The notes beneath the pieces are model-generated. The model had not been told where the DNA came from. It made no database searches and saw only the letters and a program-made list of their open reading frames with translations. From Euglena gracilis (lineage: Eukaryota): a stretch of DNA of 64,000 bases. Shown piece after piece: positions 2,906-63,105 of this stretch; the stretch's first letter is position 1, and every line of letters begins with the position of its first letter. Location of the stretch: NCBI GenBank assembly GCA_039621445.1, contig CP154954.1, forward strand, positions 13,076,716 to 13,140,715, in the 5' to 3' direction. Both the position numbers and the translations under genes were made by a program.

Positions 2906-4561
2906 ATAAGTTAGGATTCCACTTTTGCAATAGACCCCCTGAAAAAAGGACATTTTTTATTTACATTACATTAATATCACATTTACGTTGATATTTATTT
3001 TATGACCAAAAAAATGGTTACAAAGCGCCAAAAAAAGGTTAAAATTGACGGTTTTTTTTTGCGTTTTTTGCTCATTTTTACGCATTTTTGCACATTTTTT
3101 TCGAGGCCGGGCTAGTGCATCCCCCCCCCCAGGGCTCAGGGTCCAAATAAAAGCGCACCTCCTGTTATTGAACGCCGCGAAGCGCACCGCCATTTTGATG
3201 GTAGTTCTGAAGGAAATCAACAAAAATTAGACAGGTAGGGTCCAAATAGAAGCGGACCCCCTGTGTTGGAGGTGGTAGTCCACTATAAACGCACCCTCAC
3301 TTCAATTAGGAGAGGGGGGTTAGTGGTCGTTGCACCAGGGGAGAGGGAGGCATGATCTGCTTACTCATGTCCATGGGTATCAGTGCATTTTTTTTTTGAA
3401 ATTTCATGCCCCACCCCCTTACCAACCGACTACCCTTAAATACCGACCACCCGGTCAGGGTTTGCCTGTTACGCTGTATATATGAGAGCCCCCCCCCCTC
3501 GTTGGGCGTTGTAGGAACCTGGTCGATGGGCAAGGGGTGGGTGGGGGCAGGTACCAGACGGATTTGAGCACTGGCCTTGCACCATGCTCCTTGTCATCAG
3601 CACTAAAATGATTTGGCTTGTGGAGACGCTTGGAGCCGTGGTCCGCAACGCAGCGTAATGCAGTGTACGCTTTGCGTACCCTTCAGCTCAGTTGGGCATG
3701 GGCATTCGTCCTTCCCCCCCCCTTCCTCAGTGCTCTCTTGCTGTGCGAATGCGCCAAGGTCCGGCATATTGTGTTTGAAAACCCCACCCAGAACGACAAA
3801 TATTTGTGGTTTTCTGGTTGAGACCATGGGCCAGTCTCACATCGCACGCATATTCACTCACGCAACCATTTACATCACGGAAATAATAATAAGTGATAAT
3901 GTGCATACCTCTCTTTTGTGGCTTTTCATTGTTATCGTACCCCCTTGAGCTATCAAAACCACAAGCGAGGCTTCCCAAATGTTTGGCTTCAGGAATTATG
4001 GGAATCGTGTTACATTCGTCCCACACAACCCAGCAAACCTGGAAACGTTTAAAAGAGGCCTACTTGCTGTATGGCCGTCCCACAAAAGCTCCCTCTGGCC
4101 TGGAGATTTTTCCAGCATTTAAATAGAGTTTGAGTTTTGACAATTTAACAGCACACATTTTTCCCGTTTTTGGTGTGGATGGCCCAGGGGAAGGGAGTTT
4201 TATGTTTGGTGTTGTATTGTGGATTGTTGGATAACGCTAACCCTGACCCTGACTCTAACCCTAACCTGTGTTATCGTGTGACGAGGGCAGCCGTGAATCT
4301 TTCCCGGGTTTGAATGAAAACACCTTTTCCAGACTGCGGTTGGAATGAAGTTGCGTCCGATATTATTATTGTCTTCCTTCCGATCTTGTTATTGTCCTCT
4401 CCATGGAGGGTCGTACACCGCCATGGGTTTCAGCACTAAATCGACCAGGGTGCTGTCAGTCCCATATTCCCCTCAAGAACATTTATGGCCTGAGTTGGCC
4501 GACACAGCCTGGCCTGACTTGGGTAATATTTTCATTTTCCCGTGCTTGATGGTATACATTC

Positions 4562-4831
4562 CAGGCTTGCGCTTAGTCGGTGCCTACCCCACGGGGGGGG
4601 GGGGGTGGTGCTAGGGGCAGGCACCCCATAGCACCCGGAGGGGGCCTGCCCATAGCAGGCACCCCCCCTCCGACCCCGGCGCCGAAGGCACCGGGGGCCC
4701 AGAAAAGGCCATTTTCAATGAAAATTTTCTGGGTCCCCCCCTATCCCCCCCCGGGGGGGGTGCCTGCTAGGAGCAGGCACCCTATAGCACCCACCCCCCC
4801 TCCCCCCCCCCGGTTGGTAAGCACAAGCATG
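4562..4831. mobile_element. Non-autonomous hAT-like MITE (family A)
   Basis: TIR CAGGCTTGCGCTTA/TAAGCACAAGCATG, perfect 8-bp TSD ATACATTC. Confidence 0.85.
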
Positions 4832-6796
4832 ATACATTCGGTCCCATACGTGCTGGTTTTTCACGTTGGGAAGTTCGCCTCCCCTGGTGTCGGAGGCTGC
4901 AGGTGCTTGGGAGGAGCAGGAGCTTGACCCGAGCACACAGCGGCGATGGGCTCGACCGGCACACCACCGGTAGAGACTGCCTTGACCCTGCTGCAGCTGA
5001 ACCCGGGAACAAAACCCGGAGATGGTAGCCCCACCTGACCCCGACTTGCTGTCCCCGCACGATAGCAGGTTGGCAAAAGCAAGTTCTGGTTTCCAACTTC
5101 GTCCGTGTTGATTTTTTGTCTCATCTTAGGCAAAAATGAATTATTGGGGTGATTGTTTTCTCCAGAAAAAAGCTGCGTTCCAAGAAAATGGCATTGACAC
5201 AGGAGGGGTGGGGGCGCATCCTGCTCCTTAATGAGGGCAGTGGGAAGGAGCGTTTGGGCTCTGGTCCCAGCGTTCACTTCTGAAGAATGACGATGAACGC
5301 ATTGAACGAATGAACGAATACAAGACTGTTTCCATGAGACAGCCTTTGCTGCAGCTGGGAGCTCAGGTCGCTGGGTTGAGGTTGCTTCCTAAAACTTCTT
5401 CACAATTGCTGCTCACAAAGGTGAAACGAGGGAGGGTGAAAGGGCGGGTGTCTGTGATGCGTTGAGAGTGGACGTTGCCAAAAACCACAAATTTCTGATG
5501 CGAGGAAGGCTGTGGAACAGGATCCTCGGCCTGCACATCCTCCGGCTCTGCAACGCTGAAATCACGGACCTCAGAGGAACAGCGACATTGGGTGGCAAAC
5601 AAAACATGGCTCACAAGCAAGCAGCCCTGATGATGCTGGCGCTGCTGGGCGATGCTGGTTTTTTGGAGGCCAGAGGTGGGGTTCCGGTGCTGGGCGATGC
5701 AGGCCGACCGGGGGGGGGGATTTGAACGGGAAAAAATCTTGTGGAAAACTTCTGGATGAAATGTGAAAATTTTGTTTGAAGGTTTTTTCGCACCATTTTT
5801 AAGGATCCGTGGTAATGGTAATTTAGGAAGAATAGTCAATTTCTTCTTGTGAACACCAAAAAAAATTATTTGGCGCTTCGCGCCAATTCTGGGAACAAAC
5901 TTTTGTTCCAAATCACCTGTTTAAATGTGCACTGATCATCCAAAATGAAAGAATATATTTTATTTGCTTATTTTGAAATTTTGGAGTTTAGGATTTAACC
6001 ATTATTTGAACGTTGTATTGGAGGAAACCTCGGAATTTTGATGTGAATTCTGATGGCTTTTTCTGAGAAATGGGTTCAGAAGTTTTTTCCGTCCAGAATT
6101 CTTGGCCATTCTTCGGATGAATTTTTGACAATTTGGGGCCATTTTGTGATAATTTGGGGAGTATTTGGCTAATTTGGGTCAATACGAAATGTGACAGCGG
6201 TGAATATTTGGCTAATGTTTGGTTAATATGAAATGTTATGGCCAGGATGCAGACACTGGAGAGTGGCTGGAGAGGATGCAGATATTTGAGTGCATGCAGT
6301 TAGTGCAGGTGTCGGAAGTAACCCTCCCCCAAATAAAACTCCCCAAATAATCAGGGCGGTCCATAAGGGAAGTTCTTTTCCCCTAAAGGACCGCCCCTTA
6401 AGGACTGCCCTTTGGCCTAAGGGACGGCCAACGGCCGATCTGAGAATCGAATGGGGTCGGGTGGATGCGCGATGGTCCAAGGACACCAGAAATCACTTTT
6501 TCCCCCCAAAATCGACCCATTTTCGATATGGCTTTTTTTCGTCAGTTTTCCCTATTGAATTTTCGTTGAATGTGCTGGGACGGGAAGTTTTTTTTTTCGT
6601 TAAATTTTTTTTCCCTGCAAATGATACTCCCCAAATGATTTTCAAAAGAAATAATGATGCCTCTCCGACCTGTATTTTCACCAAAAAAAAATGTGGTTGA
6701 AAATCAGGATTCATGGCGATAAATGACCTAAAAAAATGTGGGTTTTTGTTGACCATGGGACACAAATATGTCAGTTTTTGCTTTAATAAAGTGGGG

Positions 6797-7324
6797 TGTT
6801 TTTGGGTGGTTATTTTGGGTCGTGTTGATTTTTGAAAGTTTTCGAAAATTTCGAAAAGAAATTAAAAATGAATGATACTCACCCCAAATAATGCCTCCTT
6901 GGACGGGGATTTCAGGCGAAAAAATCCCCCGGGGGGCATTATTTGGAGCAGACCATCATTTAGTGCGTATCACAACGTATCTGTGATACATTAATTTTAT
7001 TTTGGTGATACATATGTTAAACACTTAAAAAAATTTGGTGATATATATGTGATACACAATTGTTTTTGGGTGGTTATTTTGGGTCGTGTTGATTTTTGAA
7101 AGTTTTCGAAAATTTCGAAAAGAAATTAAAAATGAATGATACTCACCCCAAATAATGCCTCCTTGGACGGGGATTTCAGGCGAAAAAATCCCCCGGGGGG
7201 CATTATTTGGAGCAGACCATCATTTAGTGCGTATCACAACGTATCTGTGATACATTAATTTTATTTTGGTGATACATATGTGATACATTTAAAAGAATTT
7301 GGTGATATATATGTGATACACAAA
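6797..7324 (+). repeat. Near-perfect tandem duplication, unit about 264 bp
   Basis: TTTGGGTGGTTATTTTGGGTCGTG... occurs at 6801 and again at 7065. Confidence 0.9.
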
Positions 7325-8352
7325 TTTTTTTGTCTTTTTTTGTCAGCAAATTTCTCAGCCGCTCCTTCCAAAGGGAACCTTAAAAACGCGGAAGACAGGA
7401 TTCCGAGACAACAATTCCTCCAACCATTGACAAGAGTACACCCCACAAATAATACCCCCCGGGGTATTATTTTTCGCCCGAAGTCCCCCGAGGGGGGGGG
7501 GTATTATTTGGGGAGGGGTATTATTTCCCAAAATTTTTCGAAATTTTTCGAAGTCCCGTAAGTCCCAAATAGCACCCTTTGGGGTCATTTTTTGTACTTT
7601 CTCATAAAATTTAGCATTTTTGGAGGCCAGATGATCAAGAAAAATCGAAATTTTTCGTAGTTTGTTGTCAGAGATTGTTATTTTTACCCAACTTTTCAGG
7701 TCAAAATCCGGGTCGTCGGCCCGAGATTTGGGGGTGTTAATTCGGTGGCCGAAGTCGGACCCCGTATGGGGGAGTATTATTTGAGGGGGTGTTATTTGGG
7801 GGGAGGGTCAACCTCTTCCCTCCCGGGCGCTTGGCCCGGGCCATGATTGAAGGTAAAGCCAGGGGGCTAACCTTAGGGGGGCCAAGTTTGCATGTTAAGA
7901 ATTTTGGCGGCCATGTGCAAAGGGCCAAAAGCCAATTTTAGGGGGTTAAGTTTGCATGTAAGGAGGAGTGGGGCCAAGCGCCCGGGGGGGGGGGAGGTAA
8001 TCATTATAACCCCGACTACAGATTGGAAAAACTTTTGCCGGGGGAATTGGCGAGTCGTAACACATTGCCGAAAGCATTATCACAAGAAAAATGTTCCAAT
8101 TGTCTGCAGAGAGGCAAAGAAACAAGGATGAAAAGCGGAACAGAAAGGGGAAAAAACATTTTGATGTAAAAAAGGAAATGTTTATGAAAAAAAATTGGTG
8201 ATACACATGTGATACATAAAAATTTTATTGGTGATACATATGTGATACATTAAAAAAATTTTGGTGATACATACGGGATACATTAATTTTTAGGGTGTGA
8301 TACATGTGATACATAAAAAAAATTTTGGTCATATATACTAAATGGAGGTCTG
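7213..8352. mobile_element. hAT-like element with GTGATAC subterminal repeats. The left end is duplicated at 6949
   Basis: TIR CAGACCATCATTTAGT/ACTAAATGGAGGTCTG, perfect TSD ATTTGGAG. Confidence 0.85.
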
Positions 8353-15817: not shown

Positions 15818-16156
15818 CACAAAACACAACACATGAGCGCGACACACACACACACACACACATTCACTCATTCACTCACTCAATCACTCACTCACTCACA
15901 CTCACTCACTCACACACACCTGTGCACGTGCGTTCGACGATAAGTATGCAGCTATTCTCGCCAATTTTATTTTACACAGTGCGCTGGATATGCCGCTGTG
16001 GTGGTACAAAATGGCACTGATGCCAGATGCCAGATTCCAGAATGGTACCATGGAGGAAGTTGATGCTGAAATGTGCCAAACAGCAGGTGGGTCGTTACAC
16101 CTTGAAGTGTGTAGGCTGAAAAATATCCGTTTGAGCAAGTCAATTTGTCGTCCGTT

Positions 16157-16380
<224 letters not shown>

Positions 16381-16642
16381 TTATTTTTTGAAAATCACCT
16401 TCCCAATTGGCCATCATCTCCTTTGTGTTTTGCTCCACACAGCTCCTTCTCTTCCTCGATGGGCAAGAATTCCAACAACCTTCTCGCGATGGACTTGAAA
16501 TTCCCCTCTTTCGACCTGGAGACTGAGTCCCCGAAGTTCGTTCAGGCAGCCTGCTGCGTCGATGGCCCAGGGAAAGAAGTGCACAGAATTGCTGTTGGCC
16601 GGATTGATTGGTACGCAGCCTTGGAAAAACTCAGTTCACCAC

Positions 16643-17014
16643 CAGGGATTTTTTTTGGGGTCGTGGACCCCCGGGGGGGGGGGAGGGTGGGTGGGTCCGG
16701 CCGACCCCCCCCCCCCCCAAGGGGTCCCCCCCCAGAAGGGGTGGGATGTATTTTTCGGCACCCAAAATTTTTGATAAAGGTGCTAGTTTTGGCATTTTTT
16801 TCGATTTTTTGGCCCTTTTCAGGGAAAAGTGGGTGGGTCGGTGCTTGGTGCAGACCTCCCGTTCAAGGCCATCCCTTTCCAAATCAACATCCACCTTCAG
16901 GAATAATATGAAGCAAAAATTATCCAAACCTTTCAGCTGAAGTGGTGAACACCGGTTTTTTTTTTAAGACCGGGCGGTCCTTTTACCCACCCACCCCCTG
17001 GGGGGGGCCGGGTC
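16643..17014. mobile_element. hAT-like MITE (family B) whose right end and flank are inverted
   Basis: TTCACCAC|CAGGGATTTT at the left. GTGGTGAA|CACCGGTTTTTTTTTTAAGACCGG at 16942 is the reverse complement of the right end plus TSD. Confidence 0.75.
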
Positions 17015-17668
17015 GCTGATGCTGCTGTGTGATGCTGGGCGATGCTGGAATTTTTTGGACGGTTTTGAAGGAGTAAACCCATTTTTGGGATAAATAAGCA
17101 ATCATTTCCAAATCTCTAGCAAGGCCCACAAAAGGAGAAAAATGACCCAAACTGACCAAAATTGCATAAACGTGCTCATGTTGACCCAAATTTACCCAAT
17201 ATTTGCCCAAACATTCACAAAATGGCCCCCAAATCTGCCCAAAAATTACACCAAAATAGCAAAAAATGGGTTGTTAATATTTTTGGACCTTTTTGGTTAT
17301 TTCGTGCCATTATAGTTCAGTTGGTTGCTTTTTGGTGGATGCAGATACTGTATTGGCCAACTGAGTGGTGTTAAAGGGGCCCAAAGCCGCCAAAAGTTGC
17401 CAGAAAACAATTAAAAGCAATCAAAAAGCATATCTAATAGTGGCTGCAAGCTCAAATGTGGGAGACACAAGAAACCCAGCCACCCATGCCCACCCACCCA
17501 AAATCCAGCCGAAATCGGCCGAACCCCCTCAGAAAATCTGGTGCACCCCCACCCTGGGGGGGGGTCCAACCTCAACCTCAGGCTTCAACCCACACACCCA
17601 CTCTCAAAAGGGGGTGGGTCACACCGATACAGAGGTGGGTGTCTGATCAAACCGATAAACGTGCGGGT

Positions 17669-17815
17669 GGGGCGTGGCGGCCTGCGCCGCCGGCCACCCC
17701 ACCGGGCCGTGGCAGGCGCCCGGCGAGGCGTACGTCAACCGCTCCAGCAAGCTGCAGCACTGCCACTTCAACTCCTTCTTCGCCGCCGCGCACGGCCTCC
17801 GCCGCAGTCTGCACC
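17669..17815 (+). CDS. Exon (VAACAAGHPTGPWQAPGEAYVNRSSKLQHCHFNSFFAAAHGLRRSLH)
   Basis: Very high GC3 island. The 3' end is set by the predicted nonconventional intron. The 5' end is approximate. Confidence 0.65.
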
Positions 17816-18215
17816 GCCCACGGCTCGTGCGGTGTTGCCAATTGCTGTTTGTGTGTAGCGGATCGGTTTGCCACTTCGGAAATCTAAACCTTTTTTTTTT
17901 AAGAAAAACTCTAACCTCCCCTTAGTATAATGTATAATATATATATATATGTATATATATATATGTATATATATATATGTATATATATGTGTATATATAT
18001 GTATATATGTATATATATGTATATATACATATATATATATAATATATTATATATATATTATATATATATATATATATTATAAAGTAGTGTGTATATATAG
18101 TATATATATAATAAAGTATAATGCCCCCCCCCGGCGTTATATTTGGGGGGAAATCAAATTTTTTGAGGTGTCCTCTTTCGGCCGAAGTCAAATAAAGTCC
18201 ATGAGCCGTGCCCGC
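17816..18215 (+). other. Predicted nonconventional (euglenid-type) intron
   Basis: Starts GCC-CACGGCTCGTG and ends CATGAGCCGTG-CCCGC|A. The stem starts exactly at +4/-6 (11 bp including one G-U pair), with R at +1 and Y|R at the 3' junction. Joins in frame as LH-Q-STPVEE. An in-frame GT-AG alternative also exists. Confidence 0.55.
17925..18120. repeat. (TA)n-rich microsatellite
   Basis: Seen directly. Confidence 0.95.
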
Positions 18216-18358
18216 AGTCCACGCCGGTGGAGGAGGTGCTGCGGGTGGTGGGGGCGGGGCTGCGGTACCTCGCCCGCGCCCGGCTGTGGCTGCGGGTGCT
18301 GCGCGCCTTCCGGGCGGAGGGCTGCGTGCGGCGCGTGCCGCGGCTGCTGGGGCCGAAG
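18216..18358 (+). CDS. Exon (STPVEEVLRVVGAGLRYLARARLWLRVLRAFRAEGCVRRVPRLLGPK)
   Basis: Near-100% GC3, followed by AAG|GTGCGC. Confidence 0.7.
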
Positions 18359-18692
18359 GTGCGCCGTCGGGCAGGGCTGCCCGCTGTCCCCATGCGGTGT
18401 GACTGTACTAAACTTTGTGGGCCATCTGGCCTCCAAAATTGCCAATGTCTGCGAAACCGTTGCAAAGAAAAAGACCCACAAGGGCGGTTTTGGATTTTCA
18501 AAAAATTTCTAAATTTCCGAAAAATCATCACCCCTCAAATAATGCCCCCCAGGAGGGACTTCGGGCGAGAAAACAATGCCCCGAGGGTATTATTTTGGGG
18601 GGTCTACTGTGTGCACGGCGGTTGCAGAAGTGCTGCAGTGCTGGTCTGTATGCATGTGTTACATGTATGTATGTGTGTATGTATGTATGCAT

Positions 18693-19118
18693 CAGGCTTC
18701 TTTTTTTGACCCCCCGGGGGGTCCCCACCCACCCACCCAGGGTGGCGCGGGACCCCCCCGGGGGGCGGGGACCCCCCCAAAATTGGGCCCGTTAAAGGCA
18801 ATTTTCAAAGTTCAAAAGGTATACCCGGCACCTCCGGCGCGGGACACCCCCCCCGGCCCGGACCCACACCCCCCTCCCCCGGGGGGGGGGGGGGTCACAC
18901 CAACCACACAAGGTGAGTGTATGTCCCTACAGCGCTGGAATTACACCAGAGTTACTCACCCGACCAGGGGGAGCAACAAAAGAGGACTGGTGTAAGGGGT
19001 CCCTGGCCACTCACCACGCAGCAAACTGGGCCAGAAGCGAAGTTAGCGCCGGCCATAAACAAACAAGAAGCCTTAGTGCAACTAAGGGGGGGGGTCAGGT
19101 GACTTAAAAAGAAACCTG
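18693..19118. mobile_element. hAT-like MITE inserted in a (GTAT)n tract
   Basis: TIR CAGGCTTCTTTTT/AAAAAGAAACCTG, perfect TSD GTATGCAT. Confidence 0.8.
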
Positions 19119-19393
19119 GTATGCATGTATGTTTGCATGTATGTTTGTGTATGTTTCGGTATGTCTGTATGTATGCATGTACGTTTGTATGTATGTATGT
19201 ATGCATGTATGCATGTATGTATGTTTGTATATGTATATGTATATGTAACGTAATAGTATATATGTAACGTAATATTATATATGATGCAATATAATATATG
19301 TTATATGTACATGTTACTATTATGTGATTTCACCGCACCTCCTGGTGGAGATTAGATAGCCGTTGCGCACATCCTCGCGCCGCCCTGGGCCCC

Positions 19394-23459: not shown

Positions 23460-23660
23460 CCACCAACCCACCCACCCACCCCCCCACCCACCCACCCACC
23501 CACCCACACACACACAACACACAACACACAACACACAACACACAACACACAACACACAACACACAAGACACAACACACACACACACACACACCACACCAC
23601 ACATACGCAACATACACACACAACACAACACACACACGCACACACACACACAACACACAC
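23460..23660. repeat. (CCCA)n/(CACAACA)n/(CA)n compound repeat
   Basis: Seen directly. Confidence 0.9.
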
Positions 23661-47942: not shown

Positions 47943-49310
<1,368 letters not shown>

Positions 49311-49984
49311 GTGCCTCGCTGATGCGCCGCCTGTTTGGGCTAGAGTGTTACGAGGGAGTGCAAAGAAATAAGGTCTGGTTGCCTTTTTGTTTTTTTTTGC
49401 ATTTTTTTTTGCGATATCACCGGAGTTGCAACATTTTTTGCCTTTTTTTGCCAGGCAATTGCTTTCAAATTCTCACACTTCAGAGTCTTCCATGTTTCCA
49501 ATAATGTCCTCATCTGCACTTTCGAGTTTAAATGTTTCATACATTATACTTTTTTTTCAATATCAAGATGTTCTCAATGGAGAGATCTTTGTTTTTTTTG
49601 TTGTTGGCGCAAAATGCGGAAGAATGAAGTTTCCAACCGAACACCTGAGCCAAACACCATTGAATTCTTGTTGTTTGTAAATCTGGGTTTGTAAAGTTAG
49701 TATCGGCCCGGCCCTCCACCAGGAATCTCCCACGAACTTCTCATTTTGCGGAGCATAACAGACGGCTTGTGACGTTTGCAAATAACTACTACAAGGCATC
49801 CTGGATCTTTTCATCCATTTTGTACTCGCCAAAATGAGGCTTCCTGACCACTACCCTCCTCCCTATGGCTAGAAAGGCAGATCACCAATTGTGTTACACA
49901 TCCCACGCAGTCTTTGCAGATTTCATGGTTTGAGATTTTCCCAGATAATTTTTTGTCCATTCGGAATTTTATACAGTGTGAGAC

Positions 49985-50233
49985 CAGGGATTTTATAGTC
50001 GTGGACCTGGGGGGGGCCGGCCGGGCTCCGGCCGAGCCCCCCCCCCCCCCGGGGGGGTCCCCCCAGAGGGGGGTGGGAAATACTTTTCGGCCGAAAATTT
50101 TTGAAAAGGCGCTATTTTTAGCACTTTTCGCGATTTTTGTGGGTCCCCCGGGACCCCCCCCCCCCGGGGGGGCCCAGGGGGTGGGTAGGTGGGGGGGACC
50201 CCCCTCCCCCCCGGTCTTAAAAAAAAAACCCTG
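49985..50233. mobile_element. hAT-like MITE (family B)
   Basis: Ends CAGGGATTTT/AAAAACCCTG, perfect TSD TGTGAGAC. Confidence 0.9.
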
Positions 50234-50985
50234 TGTGAGACACCATTGTATACCCTCTCTACCCCCGCTACTGTGTGTTCCGAGTGGACTCCCTTTCCTC
50301 AGAGTGCGACCCTGGAAACCCCACAGAATTCCGGCCAGGCCGTTGCTTTGGTCGCTTGACAATACCTTTTGGGTAAAGCCACAGGCACCACGGCGTACAG
50401 GATGCTCGGCTCAATTTCCCAAACAACAAAGCCTGCTGACTTGAGCATCTGTCAACCCGGGCTGTGGCCAAGCTGTGTTGGAAGGCCCCCTCCATTCAGG
50501 GGAGAGGAAGTGGATTATACGGAGAACAGCTGTAGGGAATTTTTGGGACAGCTTTTGGTGCAGACGGCGTCATTTATTTGAAAGTAATTTTTGAATGGAA
50601 TTTTGTACGTCCACTCCAGCTGGGCATCTGCTCAAGTTCACAATCCCCGGGGGGGGGGGGGGGGTCCAAATTTGGCTCGTGGAAATCCTAATGGATCTCC
50701 CGGGGGTTTACCAGCAGGGCCAGCTGGTGAAAAAAATTCCCAGTGGCCTCCGCAAAGCGCTGGAAAAAAATTGCCCAAAACCTGCCGGAAAAAAATGCCT
50801 ATTTTTGGCCACGGAAGAAAATCGGCCAACAAACCGCATTTGACCACCCCGGGATGTGTCGCCGGATGGAGTGGTGTGCCACACTGGGCGACGCCGGCAA
50901 TTTTCGTGTTGGGGGACACGGGGATTGGTTTTTGAAATCCACCCCCTTCCCCCCCCCTCCCCCCAATTGGAAGTCCCTCCCCCGA

Positions 50986-51234
50986 TGGGCCGCCCTCGCC
51001 GCGCCCTGGCCCCCGGCGCCCCTCCCGCTGCCGGAGGTCCCCGTGGCGCGGCCCGAGGTCAAGCCGCCGCTGCTGGACCCCCAGTGGATGTGGATGCAGC
51101 GCATGGTGGACTCCAAGGCCTCCGGCGGTCTGCCTTCCCCCGCCCGGGCGCACACTCGCACGCACTCACACGCTTTCACTCACACATACACACACCCACA
51201 CGCACACCGTTACACACAGACACTCACGCGCGCG

Positions 51235-51307
<73 letters not shown>

Positions 51308-51470
51308 AACGCACGCACACAAGGCACGCACACGCATACACACATTCATGCAGAAACACACAGGCGCAAGCATGCACACATATGTGTACACAAGTGCGTA
51401 CACACACACACATACACACAGCAACACAAACAGACAGACAGACAGACATGCACATGCACATGCGCACGCG

Positions 51471-51525
<55 letters not shown>

Positions 51526-51534
51526 ACATACACA

Positions 51535-51571
<37 letters not shown>

Positions 51572-54500
51572 CACAAACCGCCAGTGCATTGTTTCCGGCA
51601 GTTCCGCGGGAGCTGGTCACTAGGCTGCTGGACGTGCAGGAGAAATGGAAGGAGGACCGGAAGGCTTTAGTCGACCTGCAAACCGACCTGCTGTACGTGT
51701 TGGATCAGCTGGAGGAGCAGCGGAGGCAGGTGTGGTTCCTGGATGGACTGGTTCGTCAAACCCTCAAAAAAGGGCGTGCCAAAAATGAATTCAGGAATTG
51801 CATGTAATGTTAAGAAGAAGATATAATTTCATGTATATTAATATTAAAACTGGTTCGATGTTGTATATTATTCTTAAAAATGACAACATTCATTCATCAG
51901 AGATGTTCGTGGATTCCCACTGCGAACGTGTATCAGCCCACATATTTTGTATAAGGTTGGTGTCCTCGCATCAGAAAGGGGTTTAGCCATCCCTCTTTTC
52001 TCCCCAAGGCAGAATGAGAATCCCGATGGGGGCAATCGACCACCATCGCTCTCCTTGGTTGGCAGGGGGGGGGGGCTCCCACCACCCCTAACCCTAACCC
52101 CTTCCAGTGGCGCCGATCTTTTCAAAATTATTTTTGTCAAATTTTTCCATTTTGGTACCGATCCATTTTTACTGGCAACGGTGTGGGTCGTAGGTCCGAC
52201 TACTGCCCCACCACCTTCCCTCCCTGGGAGGTTTGTGGATTCGGCCAAATGTGTGTCTTTGAAAACCCTTTCTTTTCGTCCAGACTTTTTTTGACATCCC
52301 AACCACCTGTCCATGGCACGCGGGGAACAGTGATTTTATTAAGCCGAAGGGGAAGATGATAAAAGATGAAAAACAATCAGCAGAAAAATAGAAAATTTGA
52401 GATCAAATGAATGAAGTGGTGTATTTGCCATTCGGGATTGTGCAAGGAAGAGAAGGGTACCCACCGGGCACCTGGGCTCTTCACAGTTGGGGGTCGCCTC
52501 ACCTTTTTCCCGGCCAAGAACTCCCAGCTGGGCTGCAGAATCTGCAGAACCAGGAGTGGAAGTAAAGTTTTTAACACCTCGGCACAGTGTGCCAATTTTT
52601 TTTTGCAAATGGGATCCGATATTGTCAAAAATGCTGTTTTTTTGCGAAAGTGTTAACGTATTTTCCTGAAAAGATTGGCAACGACATTTAAAGTGACCTC
52701 TAAATAATACAATGATTGCTTGAGAGGAACCCCAAACAGGCTCTTTTTTAAGACCCCTGGGGGAACGGGAGGCGACCCGCCGGGGGTAGAACCCCAAAAA
52801 ACCAGGCCACCTGAATGAATTTCTCAGAATTTTTCCGGTGTTTTGTATGAAATCTATATTATATTTATATGTAGAAAAGTATATTGTATTACTGCGGTAT
52901 GCTTATGTCGAAACTGGCCCAGCAAACCTCCCAGCAGGGTATTTCACAGGGGGCTGACCGGCAGGTAAATGGTGGTAAACCCTCCCCCCAAATAATAACC
53001 CACCAAATAATACCCCCCAAAATAGCTTCAGAAAAGGTGCCAACCCAGCAGAATGTCTCTGATTATGGGTCCCAGTCGGGTCCAACCCACCGGCCAGATG
53101 GACTGGACCACTCCGTTTTTCAGGTGGATGGGGGCCCCTGGTGTTTTTTTTTGGTGGTATTTTTGTCAACGTTGGCGTTGCTGCTTTGTGTTTTGGTCGG
53201 CAGGCTGCTCGGCATCAAACCGCAGTCATGGCAGAGCAGCGCCGGGTCGCGCGCTACGAATGGCAGACAGAAGCGCTTGCCCAGGTGGCGATGAATGCGG
53301 TCGGTTCCGCCATTGGGTATGTGCCCCTGTGACCCAGCTCTGTGTGCTGTGTGTGCATGCGACTGGGTGTGCGCACATGTGTGGGTGGGTGGGTGGGTGT
53401 GGGTATGAGTGGGGGTTGTTTGGGTGGGTGGGTGGGTGCGGGTGTGTTGTGTTTGTTGGTGTGGGTGTGGGTGTGTTGTGTTTGTGTTTGTGGGTGTGGG
53501 GGTGGGTGGGTGGGTGTGGGTGTGAGTGGGGGTTGTTTGGGTGTGGGTGGGTGGGTGTTGGTGGGTGCTGTGTTTGTGTGTGCACGCATGTGTGTGTGTG
53601 TGGTTGGTGGGTCGGCAGGTGGGTGGGTGCTGTGGGCACGTGTGTGTGCCATTTGTTGTCCCCTTCAACATGCCATATGAACCACCAACAACTGTAACTT
53701 TTCAACCCTCATTCTGCCATTTGGTTGTTTTCACCGTTTTGCTTTTTCAAAACCATATGATCGGCCTTCCCCCAGGACTGGGCACCGCGTGGTGGTGCAC
53801 ATCTTGACCCAGGAGCAGGTCCAGCAGCCCTCAACATCCATTTTTCTGGGTAGAGGGAACGGTGATGACACAATGGGAATTCAGCAGAATTTCATTTGCT
53901 CCTTGCAAGGTCGAACCCGAAATTTCAGTTCCCCCAGAGGAATTTCTGCATTGGCACCTCTGTTTTGTCCCTCATATGCTGTTTTCAGATTCATTTAAAA
54001 ACCCCCCAATTATAAAGCCCCCCCCCCCGGCTTTATATTTTGACGGATTTCAAGACCCTCAGAGGGGGCTTTATATTTGGGGGGGGGGGCTTTAAATTTG
54101 AGGGGGAAATCAGATTTTTTCTGATGGCCTCTATGACGTTCGGCAGCCTTTAATTGTGGCCAAATGCCAATTTTATGCCAAATTTCCGTGTGTGTGTGTG
54201 TGTGTCTTATTTTCCCAAATAATCCGCAATTATTATCCAAAATGGAGCATTTTTGGTGAAAAAAAAATGTTGTGTCCACCCAAAATTTTTAATTTTTTCT
54301 TGAATGGCACCAGTGTCTGGCTCCCATCGGGGGGGGGGGGAGGCTTTATATTTGGGCGGCAAAACCAAACACCGCAGGGGGGGCTTTATATTTGGGGGGT
54401 TTACCTTACAAAATTTGAAATACAGAGCTTTGATATCTTCGTCCCAATTATTTGCATTTTTTTTGCTCTGAATGTGTCAGGCGAGACGGCAGCGGAATCA

Positions 54501-56294
54501 GCAACATTTCTTGTCCTGCCGCCTGGAGAGAATGGAAAGTGCGCTGATGGCGCGCGAGGACCGATTCAACCCAACAGTGGCCCAGGCGTGTCCGAGAATT
54601 GAGTTTATTTGGATGATTTCCACCCAGTTTGTGGGATCAGGTTCATTCCCCTCCCCATTTTTAATTCCTCTGAAGTCCATTGCCTGGTTGTGTCGACCCC
54701 CCCACAATATTGTGTTTTGTTAAGTTTATTTTTTCCGAATAGTTGTCCCTAACGAGTGATTTTCATTTTGTTTCATATATATTCATCGCAAAAAATGAAG
54801 GAGTCAAACCCACACGTGATGACACACGCAGCATGCACACACAGCGTACACATTCACTTGTGAATTTGCGGGCATTTTCATATGCACATGTACATACACA
54901 CATGTGTTCATACACAGACACATTTTCACACACGCGTGCACGTGTGCGCATTAATATATTATTAAATGCTGCCAGCGAAGCTTCTCATTGTTCTCTTTCT
55001 CCTGCCTTCCATTTCCAGGGCGAAGCCCCCAACCAAACCGCCACTGCCTTGGTAGGAGCCGCCATCACCGCCATGCAGGTGTGCCGACCACGTCTCAGAG
55101 GGCTATCACTCCTGGAACGAAAGGCGAGGGGCTGGAAGACGAGTGTGCGAGACGGAAATGTTTGTCTCCATTTAGGAATTTTTGGAGAATATTCCGAAAA
55201 GTACATTTTTTGCATTTTTGCATGATTTTTGGACCTAAAACCGCCAGACAACTGGAAGTTGCGTGTTGCTCATTTTGGGCCAATTTTGTATGGCTGTTGC
55301 ATAACAAACTATAAGTGCCTGCAACTGGGTGCAGTTTGTCTGTTTATGTTTTGTATTGTATTTATTTGGTTTTTGATTGTATTTTTTTTGTATTTTTGCA
55401 TTTCTTTTCCAGCAAAGTGTCGAAGGCTCTTTGTTTAATTATGCTTCTTTATTCTTTGGCAAAAAATATATTTAAAATATTAAAAATGTGTGAATATTTT
55501 CCCAAAACAAATCCATCGGGTTGGTGATGATTACAATTTTATAAAATGTGGGGTGAAAAATAAAATGTGTTTTGATCTGCCAAGTGGGTCTTGCCAAGTG
55601 GGTTGCCACCAGGTATTTTCTTCAACATTACCGCCCTACCAGAGCGGGTGAGTGGTTTGCACGCGAAAAAAGTGGTATGGAAGTCCTGCCAAATATTTCC
55701 GTTCCGTTTTGGCCAAAACTGCCAAATTTTTCCACTTCGTTTTTGGGAAATTTTTGAAGATTCCCCCTTTTTTTGATGGAGTTCGTTCAAAAAAAAAGTG
55801 CTCTGGTCTTTGATTGTCAGTGACCTGTAATTTTTTTTCTTTCAGAATACATATCAGGCTTTCTTGTTTCAAAATGTCTGGGCCGTTTATGACTTGCTGA
55901 TGCGATTCAGATGTGTGTTTTACTTTGAATTTGGGTATGGTGAGGCCTCCAATGAGTAGTCCCATATTATATATATTCAAAGGTTCTGGCATCCATGTTT
56001 TTTGGCACCAATCCCAATGTAATGAACGACATACTCTCTCCCCTCTGCCTGTCATAGGCAGACGGGAACACTGTCACTGCGTCCTCACTCCTCACAGTGG
56101 TGGTCAGTGCCCTTCAGGTGTGTTCTTGCTTTGTGCTTTTTTGTTTTCCTTTGCTGAACTGCACCCAACCGATATATGTGGTTCGAAGTAAATTATCAAA
56201 GAACCATAACCTCCCCCCAAATTAACATCCCCCAACAATACATTCATACATACATACATTCATACATACATACATACCTACATACATACATACA

Positions 56295-56328
<34 letters not shown>

Positions 56329-57840
56329 CATACATACACACATACATACATACATACATACATACATACATACATACATACATACATACATACATACATA
56401 CATACATACATACATACATACATACATACATACATACATACATACATACATACATACATGCATGCATGCATGCATACATACACACATACATACGTACATA
56501 TTTGCATGCATGTGAGCATGTATGTGTGTCATGCGCATACGTGCGTGCGTGCGTGCATGCATGCATGTTTACAATCATGCATACATACTCCATGTGCACA
56601 TATTTATATACATATGTTACATATGTATGAATGCATACACATGTGCCTCCCCCCCCCCTTGTCGTTGACACGGCGTGTCGTTGACACACCCCCCGTGTCA
56701 ACGACACTTTTCTGGAACATTACCTATTGAATCCCAGTGACATGGCATGCCGTTGACACACCCCCCGTCAACGGCACTCTCCTGGAACATTGGCGTGTCA
56801 AACGACAATGGGGGGGGTACGCGCACAAACACATATACACCGTTCCTCTGCAGCTCGTTAGGGGACCGCAGTCCCCTACCGCAGCGAAGGACGTGCGGGA
56901 GACGGTGGCGGAGCATGTGCTGCAGATCCGGGGTGAGGTAGCCCCGGCGCTTGGGAAGTTCGCGGAGCTGTTCAGCTACAACCAGCCTTTTGTGAATGTG
57001 TGTCACAATTTGGTAGGGGTGATCGATATTGCGATTTTGACACGGTTTCCCCCAATTTTCGCAATTAGCTTTTATTAGCTCTTTAGCCAACAAATTTCCA
57101 TCGTTTTCACACTATTTTCCCAGCGTTATAATATTTTTTGATTTTTTTGAAATATTAAAACGACAATTGAAATCAAACACCGGTGCATAATGAATAGCAT
57201 TTTCGTTGAAAGGTGAATTTTCTCTGTTCCAGCAGAAACGTGGAAATTTCTGATATCAATTTTCCCAGAAATTGTTTTGAAGCCCCCCCCCCCAGGCGAG
57301 GTCTGCGTTCCACCAGCGGTTTGCACAGCTTGTCCATGTCGAGTCACTGCCTGTGCACTCCCTCCCAATGGGGAACAGCTTCCAGAAATGTTGGCAATGG
57401 CATCGCTGTGGACAATTTTGTTATCAATGTGTTCGGAAAACCAATCACATTCCATTGCACATACCACTTTTCTCTGACTGCTTTGTGCTTCTAATTGCAT
57501 CATGATTGTCATGCCGTTTAAGGAATGACACATCGGAAGCAGTTCTCATCCCCGGGGAAAAGGTGCAATTTCGATTTTCTATGAATTCTGTTTTATTCCA
57601 GATTTTCATCAATGTTTTCATTTCGGGCTCTTCGTTGTTTTGCTCTTGCTGACCATCCCCCCCCCCCTCGATTCGTTGTCTTCTTTCCACCACCCCGGCC
57701 ACTCTCTTGTGCGCCCCCCCCCCCGCCTCCGCCCCCCCCCCCAGACCGTCGGTGGGCTGCAGCGGTCCCTGACCGCGGCGCTGGACGCCATCCTGACCGC
57801 CATGGTGCACTGCCAATGCCGCTCCGCGGAGCAGACCATG
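50986..57840 (+). CDS. Multi-exon segment of an uncharacterised, partly coiled-coil-like protein. Exons ~50986-51127, 51602-51729, 53204-53316, 53776-53818, 54481-54585, 55019-55078, 56854-56991, 57745-57840
   Basis: Phase-consistent GT-AG chain: G|GTCTGC..CAG|TT (phase 1), CAG|GTGTGG..CAG|GCT (0), GG|GTATGT..CAG|G (2), CAG|GTCCAG..CAG|GCG (0). Reads ...[80 protein letters not shown]... Additional small exons may be missed. Confidence 0.75.
51150..51570. repeat. (CA)n-rich intronic microsatellite
   Basis: Seen directly. Confidence 0.9.
53999..54402. mobile_element. TIR MITE, probably TA-duplicating
   Basis: AACCCCCCAATTATAAAGCCCC at the left, GGGGCTTTATATTTGGGGGGTT at the right, with internal copies of the same motif. 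Confidence 0.65.
56238..56640. repeat. (CATA)n microsatellite, degenerate at the 3' end
   Basis: Seen directly. Confidence 0.95.
56646..56818. mobile_element. Short TIR MITE (GTTGACAC family)
   Basis: CCCCCCCTTGTCGTTGACACG ... CGTGTCAAACGACAATGGGGGGGG. Related fragments at ~19690, 28463-28535 and 46185-46230. Confidence 0.65.
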
Positions 57841-57899
57841 GGCCAGGCCGCGTGCCGGGGCACTGGAGGACTGGAGGAGGGTCCACTGGGCTTTTCACT

Positions 57900-58150
57900 C
57901 GGGGTTTTTTTTTTTAAGCCTTGGACCCCCAGGGAGAGGTGGGGGTGGATCTGGACCACCCCCCTCCGGGGGGGTCCCCCCAGAGTGGGATATGCTCTCC
58001 GGCGTTGAAGGCGCCGAAATTTTTTTGGAAAGGTGTGATTTTTAACAGTTTTCGCGATTTTTAGCCATTTTAGGGGACAGTGTCCCCCGGGACCCCCCCC
58101 CCCGCCCTCCCCAGGAGTGGGCTGTGGGGGGACCCCCCTCCCCACCCCTG
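57900..58150. mobile_element. hAT-like MITE (family B)
   Basis: Ends CGGGG/CCCTG, TSD TTTTCACT/TTTCCACT, family-B body. Confidence 0.75.
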
Positions 58151-59286
58151 TTTCCACTAGCCTTGGACTAGGTCCGATCCCCCTTGATTACTGCAAACCT
58201 TAAGCAGAAGCCTGTTCTGGCATCTGCCACTGTCCTCATCTTTAATGCATTGCAAATCAACATGTGCAGAACTAGAGTTTTCGGCAAAATCTGACTCCCT
58301 ACCAAGAAACCAACACATAAGGTGTGGGGGGGGGCGGGTATGCTGGGCTATTGGATAAGTTTTCAAAAACAAAGTCATTCTTCAATAATAACCTTTTAGC
58401 AGCGAAGACTCGGACATTAGAAGAATCCGTTCGATTCTATTGCCAAATCCCGATTCCAGGCACGACAGAAATCGTCGCAGGTGAAGCTATTTATAGCTAA
58501 CCGGTGAAGAATTTATCAAAGGAACAAAAAATCATTTTTCAGGATTTATGTGTGTGTGTGTTTTGGGGAAAGGACATGTTGAAGACTCCTGCTGGAGCAT
58601 GCATGTTTCCAAATGAAAAAAATTGAGGGCTTTTGAAAATGCCGAATGGGCTTTCAATGTCAAAGTTCGTCAAAATTTTCAAAACGCCAAACTTCATTGC
58701 CCTTGGAGTAATTGACGCAGGGTCGGGGCTTTAAAATGATTATCCTCATTTTCAACCATAATGCGACCCCTTCCGCTGGGTGCGGGTACGCGGTGACATG
58801 GTTCGGGCCAGACACCCAGGAGTCGGGCTGAAGGGGAAACCCTGTGGGGTGTGTGGGAGGAGGGGTCCGACAATTTCCCACCCCCATCGTGTCGTCCCCT
58901 CCCCCACTCCCTGCTATTTCCTTTTTTGAACTGCTGTCGTGGGTGGGGGTTCGGACCCAGGCTATTTTGAAACTCGAAAGCCTCCCCCGGGGGGAGGGGA
59001 GTGGGTTGGTGGGTCCGTGGTATGGGTTTCGGCGCAAAGCGCCAGAAAAATGTGGGAAATGCCCTCCGACGGCCCGATTTTTGGGGTTCTCCTGGAGATG
59101 CTGTGCCACGTGGGTGACCGCCCCCCCCCCCCCGGGGGGGAGTCCTACCAGGGGGGGGCCTGGTAGGACTCCCCAGGCGCATTGCACACCGGGCCTTCCT
59201 TGGCCCCACCCCCCGCCCCACCCCCCCCCGCCCCACCCCCCCCCCCCCGCCCCAACCCCCCCCGGCCCCCAACGCCGCCTGCCGCG

Positions 59287-62200
59287 GAGATGGCGAAGAG
59301 CCTGCGGCTCACCTCCACGAAGGGCGACGAGCAGGCGCGCCGCCGCCGCCGGTCCAGCGTGTGGGAGTCGTTTGAGGAGTCTCGCCCAGGCCGCCGGCCG
59401 GTGACGGAGCAGAGCGGCAGAAGGGCCTCCTTTTTGTGAATGACCTTATTTTGTGTCGCTGTTTGGGGTCCCTCCGAAGTGCAGGGGTGGTGTTGGCCGG
59501 ATGCGTGCGGGTTTTATTTGCCTGGTTTTGTCTGGGTGGTTCCCCGGTTGTTGCATTGGGCATCAGGCTGTAGTTTAGTCGGGTCAGGCCGACCCCACCC
59601 CAGGGGGGGGGGGGGTGCCTGCCTGGGCAGGCTCTCCAAGACTTCCAATCCGACCCCCCAGGGGGGGGGCACACGGCCAAAAGTGCCCTAGCACAGCCCC
59701 GGCGCCAAAGGCGCCTGGGAGCCAAAAAAAATAGCCTATTTTCAAAGGAATGTGCCTGGGCACAGGCCGAAATCCGACCCCCGGGGTAGTGCCTGCCTGG
59801 GCAGGCACTCAAAGGCACTCCGGACCCCCCCCTCCCCCCCGTGGTTGGTAAAAAAAACAGCCTTTTGGACATCGTTTTGGGCATTCGCCAGGTCAATTTC
59901 CAGATGGCCATTGCAGCGTCTTTTCAGTCCCTCCATAGATGTTTGCCTTCGCTTCTACTGCTATTTTGTTTCGCATTATTGGAGGGAGGGCCTCGCACTC
60001 CCAGTCGCCGCTGCCTGGCCGGCGCACGGTGACCACCAAGTCGGGCAGCATGCGGCGCATCACAGAAGCGGCATGCAGTTGCGTTTCTGTAGATTTTGCC
60101 AATGCATCCCCACCCCCCGCGAGGACATCTCTGCCTTCATACCGGAGGTGTCCCAGGTGCTGTTTGGAATCATTTGTTGGTATTGACGGTGTCTTGTCCC
60201 TTTTTTGGTGTGAGAAGTCATCGCGAAACGTTGCCGTCACACGTCCAACCTGTGCACACCGTGCTTGGCCTCTGGGTACCCCAGCACCGTGTCATCTCCA
60301 CAGAGGCAGAAGGGGGTCTCGGCGTTGGAGCAGGCGACCAGCTTGAACAAGACGCTGCAGGTGCTGTACCTGGAACCCAGGCCGCGGCCCGCGCAGGGCA
60401 TCGTGGGGGCGCATTACTACCCTGGCTCATCCAAGGCACTGGTTGTTGTTGACGCACGGCACACGCACGCGCTCACACACCACACATGCTGACGCACACA
60501 ACACTCAACACACAACACGCACAACTCTCTCTCACACACACATCTCGCACACAACACATAACACACAGACACACACGCAACACGCAACACACACACACAC
60601 ACGCAACACAACACGCAGACCCAACACACACTCACACACATCCACAGATGCATGTACACACACACACACGTGCTGAATAGAGCCCCTTCCCGAAGCGACT
60701 AAAAGGACCCCTTCCGAGGAGGAGGAAAAAGCTTGGTAAATACACGATGTTCGTCTGAGGCCTGAGATGAGGAGTCAGAGCACATTTCTTCCATCGATGC
60801 AGGGTGGGCCAGCACAAGATGTTTTTTTTTACGAAAGGTATTTACGTTGACCACGGAGCCGAAGGCCAAACTTTACCAAACTTTCAAGTAAAGTCAATTA
60901 ATTTTGCTCCATGTTGGCCAAATGGCCAGAGTGATGGCCCCTGTGGGAGGAGTGGGGCTGCAGCAACGTGCCGCTGCGTGCGGGCGTTGCAGGAGAACGC
61001 ACTGCAGTTGCACCAACGGCTGAGCGCCGTGATGCAGACGGTCAGCCCAGCCCTCGCGAGGCGTGTGCCTCGTGGGTCAGCCCCATCCGTCCCCCCCTCG
61101 CCGGTGGGCTCGACGCGAGGATATAATAGTACAATGGTTTTGGGTGGGGGCCACCAACCGCCCTCCCAAAATAAAACCCTCCAAAATAATACCCAGAGCA
61201 ATACTTTTTTTTATATAAAAAAAGGGTTGACACCCCCCAAAATGAGACCTGATATTTTCATTGGTTTCATTTCAAGTTTTTTGTTGGGTGGCGTCCGATG
61301 CCTGATTTGTCGGTCTCCTTGGGCTCACAGCGGGGGCAGGGCCTCTCATTGGCTGTTGTGTGAGGGTCCAGTAAAAATGTGCTGGTCCACATTTTTGGAT
61401 CAGCCAAAACAAGGCCGGAAGGATTAAGGAAAAAATTCGTCCATCATAAACGTTCTTTTACTGCACATCCTGAACCGCAAGTTCCCCGTCAAGCAACAAA
61501 CCCTCATTGACACCTGATTGCAACCCCAGCCAAAGGCCTCCCACCCAGGGTTTGATATAAGGAGGGCGTACATGGTTTAGGTGGGGGGTGTCCCCACCCC
61601 CCCCCCCCTCCTGGCCCGCAGGGGAGGTCCGGAACGCCCCCCCCCACCTGCCAGGGGGGTCCGGACCGACCCTGGGGGGGTATCCGGGACCCCCCTCAAA
61701 AAGGGTCATTTTTTTCCTCCGGCGCTTCGCGCCGAGAATTTTTTGCCTTTTTGGCACATTTTTGTCCAAAAAGTGCCCAAAATGGCACTTTTGGTCGTTT
61801 TGGGGGTCAAATATTTTCGGTCACTCAGACCGCGCCACTGTTTAGATGGGGGGGGGTGTCCCCCCCACCCCCCCCCTCCTGGCCCGCAGGGGGTGGGGTC
61901 CGGACCACCCCCCCCCCACCTGTCCTTATATCGAACCCTGCTCCCCCCCACGCATTCGAATGCTGCTTTTCAGGCCCCGGCCGGCCCACCCCCGCCGGGG
62001 GGTGCCCAGGCACTCCGGGGCCTCCGTTCCCACCGCAGCCCATCGTCCGCCGCCGAGGACGGGCCGCCGCCGCTGCGAGCCACGCCGCGCAGCCGCCACC
62101 AGGGCGCCGCGTAAGACGAGGGGCACCCCATTACCGGGGGGGGGACTTGTGCGGGAAAAAATGTTGTGGGAAGAATTCTGGACGAAATTTTGTCCAGGAT

Positions 62201-63105
62201 TTTTCCCGCCTTTTTATAGATCCGTCCAGGATTTTTCCCGGCAGATTTAAGGAAAGTCCAATGTCCTCCAGTGAATGACCCCCCAAAAAAATCTTCGGCG
62301 CTGCGCGCCGATTCGCAGCAGGAATATTCATAATTTATAAGTTGTGTGCCAGGAACCGCTTCATGTCTGTCAACACAGCGGCCTTATCACCCCAGCGGAA
62401 CGTACGAATGTGCGCTTTCTGTTTGGTTTCACAGGTGCAGCCATGCTTTCTCATTCAATTGTCGGTTGGCGCAAAACCTTTGTGTTTTTTTTTTCAGCTG
62501 TCTTATATTTTTTCCCACCTGGTTTAAGCGAGCGTTCAGGACTTTTCCCGGCATTTTAAGGATTCGTCCAATATTTTTCCCGGCAGAATTTTTCCCGTCG
62601 GCAATTGTTCCCGGTCAGATTCCCCCCCCCCCCGGTACCGGGGGTAGGGGTTCCAGCCAACGGCTTTTTCCCAGCCTGGACCCCCCCTTTTTTTGTTTGT
62701 AGCCACCACGAGTCGAAAGGGCAGCTCGGCAGCGATTTTTTGCTTTGGTGAGGGTGCAAAAAAAATGGGTCAAAAATGGCAAAAATACAGGTCAGAACAG
62801 GATGGCCAGGGCAAATTTGGGATCAGACAGTCATTTTTTTCATAATTAGCACATTTTTCAGGGCAGCATTGCAGAGTCGACATTTTGCACCCATTTCAGC
62901 CCGGGAACCCCGGTGGGGGGGGGGGGGTAGAGGGTCAGGAATCGTTGTCCCGCCAGCCTAACGCTGCCACGCCTCTTCCCGCCTTAACCCCTTCCCTCCA
63001 GGGGGCGGAGAGGTTAAGCGACCCCCTGGCCGCAACGCCGCCCTCCTGGCAGCCCTGGCCAACGACGCCGCCAGCATGGGCAAACTGGCTGGGGCGCTGG
63101 ATCGG
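59287..63105 (+). CDS. Continuation of the gene. Exons about 59287-59400, 60005-60070, 60304-60434, 60964-61040, 61974-62096, 63034-63105. The gene continues past the window end
   Basis: GC3-rich islands [110 protein letters not shown]. Some internal boundaries are ambiguous. Confidence 0.6.
59564..59864. mobile_element. hAT-like MITE related to family A
   Basis: Ends CAGGCTG.../...CAGCCTT, TSD TTGGGCAT/TTGGACAT. Shares internal GGTGCCTGC and GGTTGGTAA motifs with 4562-4831. Confidence 0.75.
61546..61940. mobile_element. hAT-like MITE
   Basis: 18-bp TIR CAGGGTTTGATATAAGGA/TCCTTATATCGAACCCTG, TSD CTCCCACC/CTCCCCCC. Confidence 0.85.
62097..63033 (+). mobile_element. Predicted nonconventional intron that is also a hAT-like TIR element (62100-63028) plus one TSD copy
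   Basis: GCCGCCAC|CAGGGCGCCGCGTAA ... TTAAGCGACCCCCTG|GCCGCAAC. TIR 12/15, TSD 7/8, in-frame exon join. Confidence 0.55.

Follow-up and report, generated by a model that had tools for sequence, protein, structure and literature searches.

Transposon-like elements with 8-bp target duplications beside nonconventional introns of matching geometry in Euglena gracilis nuclear DNA

The window considered here is a 64,000-nt stretch of Euglena gracilis DNA (assembly GCA_039621445.1, contig CP154954.1, positions 13,076,716 to 13,140,715 of the forward strand; coordinates below are counted within it). It holds two genes with nonconventional (NC) introns, i.e. introns with no GT/GC-AG option, and is littered with non-autonomous cut-and-paste DNA transposons of the kind called MITEs (miniature transposable elements with inverted repeats), which have CAGG-type termini, terminal inverted repeats (TIRs) of 10-14 nt and target site duplications (TSDs) of 8 bp. 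The subject of this report is the relation between the two kinds of sequence, the NC introns probably being older exon insertions of the same kind of element.

Two genes and their introns

The two genes, both on the forward strand, are as follows.

47957-63105, + strand: gene 1, first 18 exons, encoding amino acids 1-500 of the 956-residue protein P0003 (eukprot EG_transcript_1913)
16459-29427, + strand: gene 2, coding part, 15 exons, encoding all 479 amino acids of protein P0004 (eukprot EG_transcript_3752)

Gene 1 was reached from an amino-acid log-odds scan pointing to 51631-51792, gene 2 from a crude codon model trained on the gene-1 exons. In protein searches P0003 shows 98% identity to the query 51580-51792 and P0004 95% identity to the query from the lead at 20016-20231; both are transcript-derived proteins. 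P0003 was placed on the + strand through exact 5-mer mapping. Joined, the gene-1 exons give amino acids 1-500 of P0003 with three substitutions and those of gene 2 the complete 479-residue P0004. Because of these matches, and because the joined exons reproduce the proteins, the window can be assigned to Euglena gracilis-type nuclear DNA carrying two expressed genes, both of them known as transcripts in spliced form. Six contig sets taken to be RNA contain 0.07-0.10 of the words sampled from 24001-34000, and four raw-read RNA runs bear the same species label. For the intron calls, every donor/acceptor pair reproducing the protein was enumerated; the junctions derive from protein alignment, and the sample is one of two genes at one locus.

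No precomputed Pfam domain is present in P0003 or P0004. A Pfam search for exons, run on 150 of 177 entropy-filtered open reading frames (ORFs) (from 255 of at least 100 amino acids; those searched had at least 105), gave just seven stray single matches with E values of 6e-5 or weaker. Across the window a 3-base periodicity scan returned repeats only and no exons, and a filter on GC content at third codon positions yielded nothing useful for exons. A protein search with the candidate exon 15930-16109, taken near MITEs 4562 and 7213, found no match. ORFs crossing MITEs excised in silico were considered as coding and rejected on their non-coding appearance.

Altogether there are 31 introns, 19 NC and 12 conventional, and the neighbouring genes contrast in intron type: in gene 2 all 14 are NC, while the 17 of gene 1 comprise 12 with a GT/GC-AG option and five NC. 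Across the 19 NC introns the terminal stems run to 5-12 base pairs (at least 8 in 11 of them), versus 4-7 in the 12 conventional ones. By spacer sum, meaning all bases left unpaired from the stem out to either junction, the NC introns can be grouped into 13 with a sum of 8 (3 + 5), four with 9, one with 7 and one that is atypical (60375-60987). The published code N3-CDG...CH'G-N5-6|R (PMC12501133) is followed strictly by nine of the 19; the other ten carry the triplets CAC-GTG, CAA-TTG, TGC-GCA, CCG-CAG or CAC-CTG. A purine stands at exon +1 in 19/19 NC introns and at intron +1 in 16/19.

Introns 17816-18215, 22897-23858, 26145-26745 and 19573-20033 combine the 3 + 5 geometry with perfect or near-perfect stems and CAC-GTG, CAA-TTG or TGC-GCA. 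The atypical 60375-60987, of gene 1, opens ACC|CAGGCCGCGG like its neighbours but lacks a CTG at -8..-6, and the best stem available to it is set 11-12 nt inside the 5' junction and is flush with the 3' junction. Long GT/CA microsatellites, the largest of about 0.9 kb, are found upstream of gene 2 (16158-16381), in gene-1 introns and right after the last mapped gene-1 exon (48641-49053, 51177-51568 and 63124-64000).

MITE-like elements of the window

A sequence-only reading made earlier had listed nine intronic elements from several families, with ends CAG(G)...(C)CTG or a one-base variant and 8-bp TSDs. These are given below by coordinates, without strand, together with two further elements; family A denotes the five copies that begin at 16643, 27240, 30246, 49985 and 57900 and are mutually 65-78% alike.

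4562-4831: MITE, ends CAGGCT...GCATG; exact TSD ATACATTC at 4554-4561 and 4832-4839; related to 59564-59864
7213-8352: MITE of 1140 bp, ends CAGACC...GGTCTG; exact TSD ATTTGGAG; sits in the end of another repeat
16643-16990: family-A MITE, rearranged, within intron 1 of gene 2; TTCACCAC precedes the left end, right end inverted at about 16942-16990
18693-19118: MITE, ends CAGGCTTC...GAAACCTG, TIR 11/12; exact TSD GTATGCAT; within NC intron 18369-19393
20534-21198: MITE absent from the earlier list, TIR 14/14 CAGGGCAGAACGGG; exact TSD GGGTACCC; within NC intron 20154-22023
27240-27456: family-A MITE copy, CAGGGG...CCCCTG, without recognisable TSD; within NC intron 27190-28256
30246-31149: family-A MITE holding a further repeat, CTGGG...CCCCTG; exact TSD GCCCACTG; 3' of the gene-2 stop codon
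49985-50233: family-A MITE, CAGGGA...CCCTG; exact TSD TGTGAGAC; within conventional intron 49305-50303
57900-58150: family-A MITE, CGGGG...CCCCTG; TSD TTTTCACT/TTTCCACT with one mismatch; within NC intron 57841-59286
59564-59864: MITE related to 4562-4831, CAGGCTG...CAGCCTT; TSD TTGGGCAT/TTGGACAT with one mismatch; within NC intron 59384-60023
61546-61940: MITE, CAGGGTTTGATATAAG...CTTATATCGAACCCTG, TIR 11/12; TSD CTCCCACC/CTCCCCCC with one mismatch; within conventional GC-AG intron 61061-62038

The earlier list stood up in most respects. Eight of its nine elements have a direct 8-bp TSD (five exact, three with one mismatch), the ninth, 16643, being rearranged; six (16643, 18693, 49985, 57900, 59564 and 61546) are intronic as claimed, and 30246 lies past the gene-2 stop codon. 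That several families are represented is borne out by the alignments, which besides family A join 4562 and 59564 (70.5% alike over 156 bp). When 20534 is added, direct TSDs among the ten elements are exact in six and have one mismatch in three, with the 16643 copy inverted. The termini are CAG...CTG or one-base variants of it, namely CATG at 4831, CTGGG at 30246, CGGGG at 57900 and CCTT at 59864. Seven of the ten elements start with CAG and the remaining three with CTG, CGG, and CAG with a variant partner; TIRs match at 10-12 of 12 positions and at up to 14 of 14. The TSD 8-mers differ from copy to copy and therefore fit true target duplications. They have T at position 2 in 7/10 (p = 0.006) and A at position 7 in 5/10 (p = 0.059).

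Such structures are in excess of chance. A strict scan, demanding CAG...CTG ends, a TIR of at least 9/12 and an exact TSD, gave five matches (four distinct elements) versus none in each of 100 Markov-1 simulations. When one TSD mismatch was tolerated there were six matches (five distinct), while 60 simulations averaged 0.2 and never exceeded 2.

As to placement, four elements lie inside gene-2 NC introns (16643, 18693, 20534 and 27240), two inside gene-1 NC introns (57900 and 59564) and two inside gene-1 conventional introns (49985 and 61546), and 30246 sits about 0.8 kb beyond the gene-2 stop codon. None of the located MITEs is an intron itself; all are within larger introns or outside the coding part. 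MITE 49985-50233 folds with its ends paired (z = -3.75). On the + (sense) strand the published NC code is satisfied by three of the ten MITEs: 7213, 49985 and 57900.

Several details of individual elements can be added. At 16643 an exact copy of the left 8-mer is present in inverted orientation together with a family-type right end, at about 16942-16990; these lie about 300 bp downstream, and the layout of 16635-16990 is as expected if, once the element had inserted, a segment of about 150 bp that took in its right end and the TSD was inverted. A 264-bp tandem duplication at 6797-7332 (97% identity) covers the left 120 bp of MITE 7213 and is for that reason younger than the insertion, whose host is a terminal repeat belonging to another foldback-like element (GGCATTATTTGGAG...). 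At 41640-43459 lies a 1820-bp element with ends GGAGAATACCCAAACC...GGTTTGGGCATTCTCC (13/14) and exact 8-bp TSD TGATATCA; its GG terminus and TSD length resemble the Merlin families of E. gracilis, and no coding remnant was seen in it. The 83-bp CAC...GTG inverted-repeat unit at 34479-34561 (13/14) has CAAATGCA on either side, which may be mere repeat periodicity and not a TSD, since the unit lies inside the 76-bp tandem repeat 34345-34490.

Intron flanks and the proposed origin by insertion

The sequence-only reading had asked whether exon and intron ends at NC introns match above chance, and an excess of this kind was found. In the 13 introns with spacer sum 8, the octamers immediately preceding and following the stem were compared with each other, permuted non-cognate pairs with position-specific composition kept serving as the control. 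Cognate flanks are identical at 51 of 104 positions versus a non-cognate mean of 3.01/8 (permutation p = 0.0077), and identity of at least 6/8 occurs in 3/13 introns versus 3.2% of non-cognate pairs (p = 0.011). The three introns are the following.

62097-63033, + strand: NC intron of gene 1, CAC|CAGGGCGCC...CCCCCTG|GCCGC; flanks GCCGCCAC/GCCGCAAC, identical at 7/8
26797-27103, + strand: NC intron of gene 2, GCC|CACGGTTGT...ACAACCCTG|CTCGC; flanks CTCACGCC/CTCGCGCC, identical at 7/8 in a 5+3 register
29039-29372, + strand: NC intron of gene 2, GAC|CAAGCA...TGCTTG|CGGGG; flanks CTGGTGAC/CGGGGGAC, identical at 6/8

The 9-bp flanks of the four introns with spacer sum 9, compared by eye, match at 5, 3, 3 and 1 of 9 positions and carry no signal, with the exception of a run of five matching bases in 50333-51014.

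Introns and MITEs of the window share further features. The terminus CAGG[C/G] is common to 8/10 MITEs and 10/19 NC introns. The MITE scan, which is blind to genes, recovers NC intron 62097-63033 as 62100-63028 among its five distinct elements. Internal modules of this intron recur at 5.7 kb and 25.1 kb. NC intron 26797-27103 folds with paired ends (z = -2.15), and an internal module of it recurs in a repeat at 37.3-37.7 kb.

These observations point to the following mechanism. A MITE of the CAGG-ended kind would insert into an exon and duplicate 8 bp of its target. The terminal stem of the resulting NC intron would be the former inverted repeat of the element, and the 3 unpaired bases before the stem and the 5 after it would be what the two TSD copies contribute on their inner sides. 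Because the NC splicing machinery would cut at fixed distances from the stem, 3 nt on one side and 5 nt on the other, it would take out the element together with exactly one 8-bp TSD and restore the pre-insertion mRNA. The arithmetic of 3 + 5 = 8, as put forward in the sequence-only reading, agrees both with the 13/19 NC introns of the window and with the published code, which Nomura et al. defined by knock-ins in 2025 (PMC12501133). The sufficiency of the signature for splicing is taken from the same paper, in which 50-bp synthetic introns N3-CAG...CTG-N5|R were spliced out of an E. gracilis exon. The match in geometry is supported by the window introns together with published experiments. 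The idea refines a hypothesis already in print and does not amount to a system of a new kind. The 8-bp TSD had also been offered as the reason for the asymmetric register of these introns; it accounts for the sum of 8 only, not for the position of the 3|5 cut.

Taken together, it is probable that the NC introns are older exon insertions of the element kind with which the window is littered, and that their splicing deletes the element with one TSD. Geometry, flank identity and shared terminus are the parts of the original interpretation that held, and the points that weigh against it are these. All placed MITEs are nested, and therefore no insertion was caught acting as an intron; none of the listed MITEs is an intron in its own right, those placed in introns being nested in larger ones, two of them conventional. 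Within the 64-kb window, NC intron ends match no MITE family and only internal modules are shared, so that the family-level link expected by the sequence-only reading was not found; a stretch of this size says too little to weigh against the idea for the genome as a whole. Ten of the 13 spacer-sum-8 introns match at only 1-5/8 flank positions, i.e. at baseline, and the flank signal comes mainly from three introns of two genes at one locus, since half of the positions compared are intronic and free to decay. Six of the 19 NC introns do not have spacer sum 8, and only 9/19 follow the strict code, others having CAC-GTG, CAA-TTG or TGC-GCA at the same geometry. Junctions rest on protein alignment, not on mapped reads. 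The exonic targets rebuilt from 13 NC introns have A at position 7 in 6/13 (p = 0.009) and no tendency to T at position 2 (2/13, p = 0.57), unlike the MITE TSDs. The mirrored purine, which the sequence-only reading had attributed to the TSD, is present at intron +1 and exon +1, yet cognate identity at TSD position 6 (4/13) does not exceed the 0.41 of non-cognate pairs. Finally, the Pfam search of the 150 ORFs described above gave nothing related to a transposase.

Non-autonomous hAT elements have short TIRs with a CAG/TAG-type terminus. The label hAT is reasonable for the present MITEs, judged by TSD length, termini and target-site tendency only, and a hAT-like transposase would then be the source of their mobility. 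The T2 and A7 tendencies of the MITE TSDs, of which only A7 recurs in the rebuilt exonic targets, are similar to the target nTnnnnAn at which Hermes, a hAT element, makes its 8-bp TSD (PMC10368747). A possible but doubtful alternative keeps the link between introns and transposons and assigns the elements to another superfamily: Merlin, P-like, or an undescribed transposase with 8-bp TSDs. Two Merlin families with 8-bp TSDs are described in E. gracilis, with 8-9 bp as the TSD length and a conserved terminal 5'-GG-3' (PMC8101967). A TSD of 8-9 bp would allow the spacer sum of 9 in 4/19 NC introns, the window has a GG-terminated element with an 8-bp TSD in 41640-43459, and no report of a Euglena hAT transposase came up in the literature search. 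Against Merlin, the elements considered here start with CAG, CGG or CTG; the terminal GG is found on none of the CAG-type elements of the window and only on 41640-43459. A second point against this alternative is the T2 and A7 lean of the MITE TSDs.

It is unlikely that the correspondence is a coincidence, i.e. that the 8-bp TSDs of the MITEs and the 3 + 5 machinery are unrelated, that NC introns arose from drifting conventional introns or, after a proposal of 2016, from fragments captured in double-strand-break repair, and that the flank similarity reflects junction preferences (Y|R) of the machinery. Such a view would suit the baseline flank identity of most spacer-sum-8 introns, the strong position-specific composition of the flanks, with non-cognate match rates of up to 0.51 at some positions, and the absence of a family shared by introns and MITEs in the window; a break-repair reading of an 8-nt repeat has been published (PMC4770533). 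Yet the permutation, which preserves this composition, still gives p = 0.008, with three introns at 6-7/8. The CAGG[C/G] terminus common to MITEs and introns speaks for a connection, as does the scan for MITE-type structures that picks up an intron (62100-63028), and a constant 8 bp, inverted repeats and multi-copy families are not predicted by break repair. The reverse direction, in which MITE-like elements would be excised NC introns copied back into DNA, can draw on the release of these introns as circular RNAs (PMC11282704) but is highly improbable, since a circle would bring one fixed 8-mer and here each copy has its own duplicated 8-mer, the mark of staggered target cutting.

The chances are about even that NC splicing in euglenids amounts to excision at the RNA level, tuned to a single kind of transposon, with a fixed 3|5 register that exists because it deletes the element and one 8-bp TSD. 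Each new CAGG-ended hAT-like MITE entering a transcribed exon would then be a precise intron from birth, provided that TSD position 6 is a purine. Introns would still be gained, strains would differ in them, and insertions would impose almost no cost. This would explain how Euglena carries about 70% NC introns without harm, insertions being mended at the RNA level from the first day. As a design rule, such an element with its duplication should act as a portable intron. If the spacer sum equals the TSD length, the origin can be tested with existing genomes and RNA-seq through flank identity versus age, shared families and a matching transposase.

Published work and comparison with known systems

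The general suggestion of a mobile origin predates the present work, as the sequence-only reading had assumed: a MITE origin of euglenid NC introns was proposed in 2014 by Milanowski et al. (PMC3935182), at a time when, according to that paper, euglenid genomes had yielded no identified transposable elements. In 2016 a strain-specific, newly gained NC intron with 8-nt direct repeats was described and interpreted as break repair (PMC4770533). A review of 2024 draws CAG/CTG as TIR and the junction repeats as TSD-like, and reports that NC introns are released as circular RNAs (PMC11282704). In PMC12501133, 'slidable' introns, those with direct repeats, were set aside for the logo, and the terms TSD, target site duplication and hAT are absent from its text. 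Searches of the openly readable literature on Euglena, supplements excluded, turned up no paper connecting 3 + 5 with a TSD of 8 bp or with hAT; passages of PMC11170887, PMC12621601 and PMC6221363 contain no such connection either. The distribution of repeat lengths may already be given in supplementary material: the sliding-distance data and intron tables that accompany PMC12501133, and Table S3 in the case of PMC4770533.

What is already published, then, is the MITE idea, the equation of TIR and stem, TSD-like repeats and one 8-nt repeat. New, and a modest advance over print, are the copies that stand by themselves with undamaged 8-bp TSDs next to introns of like geometry, and a sum rule stated outright. 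Elsewhere, DNA-transposon introners of Micromonas and Aureococcus were reportedly described by Huff et al. in 2016, the Micromonas elements using canonical splice sites, and maize Ds is said to have been presented as a de novo intron by Giroux in 1994, a case that Milanowski et al. cited in 2014.

Among known systems, the hAT elements of the Ds type resemble the MITEs of the window in the 8-bp TSD and the short TIRs starting with CAG and, less clearly, in a T2/A7 tendency within the TSD. With the euglenid hypothesis (PMC3935182, PMC4770533, PMC11282704) the present account shares direct or TSD-like junction repeats, ongoing gain and one 8-nt repeat; in the available parts of that literature 3 + 5 is not equated with the TSD length and no superfamily is named. 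The window adds free-standing copies with intact 8-bp TSDs, nested in introns or outside coding parts, beside introns of the same geometry. Of the 19 NC introns, 17 come near the code of Nomura et al. (PMC12501133) in having spacer sums of 8 or 9; ten introns depart from it in their terminal triplets at the same geometry. The introners of Amoebophrya (PMC7789003) are likewise non-autonomous TIR elements that form introns, with direct repeats over the exon-intron borders and a hairpin joining the ends; their direct repeats are variable and of 3-5 nt, whereas in the present case the duplication has a constant length of 8 bp, and removal obeys a rule of its own, distinct from GT-AG.

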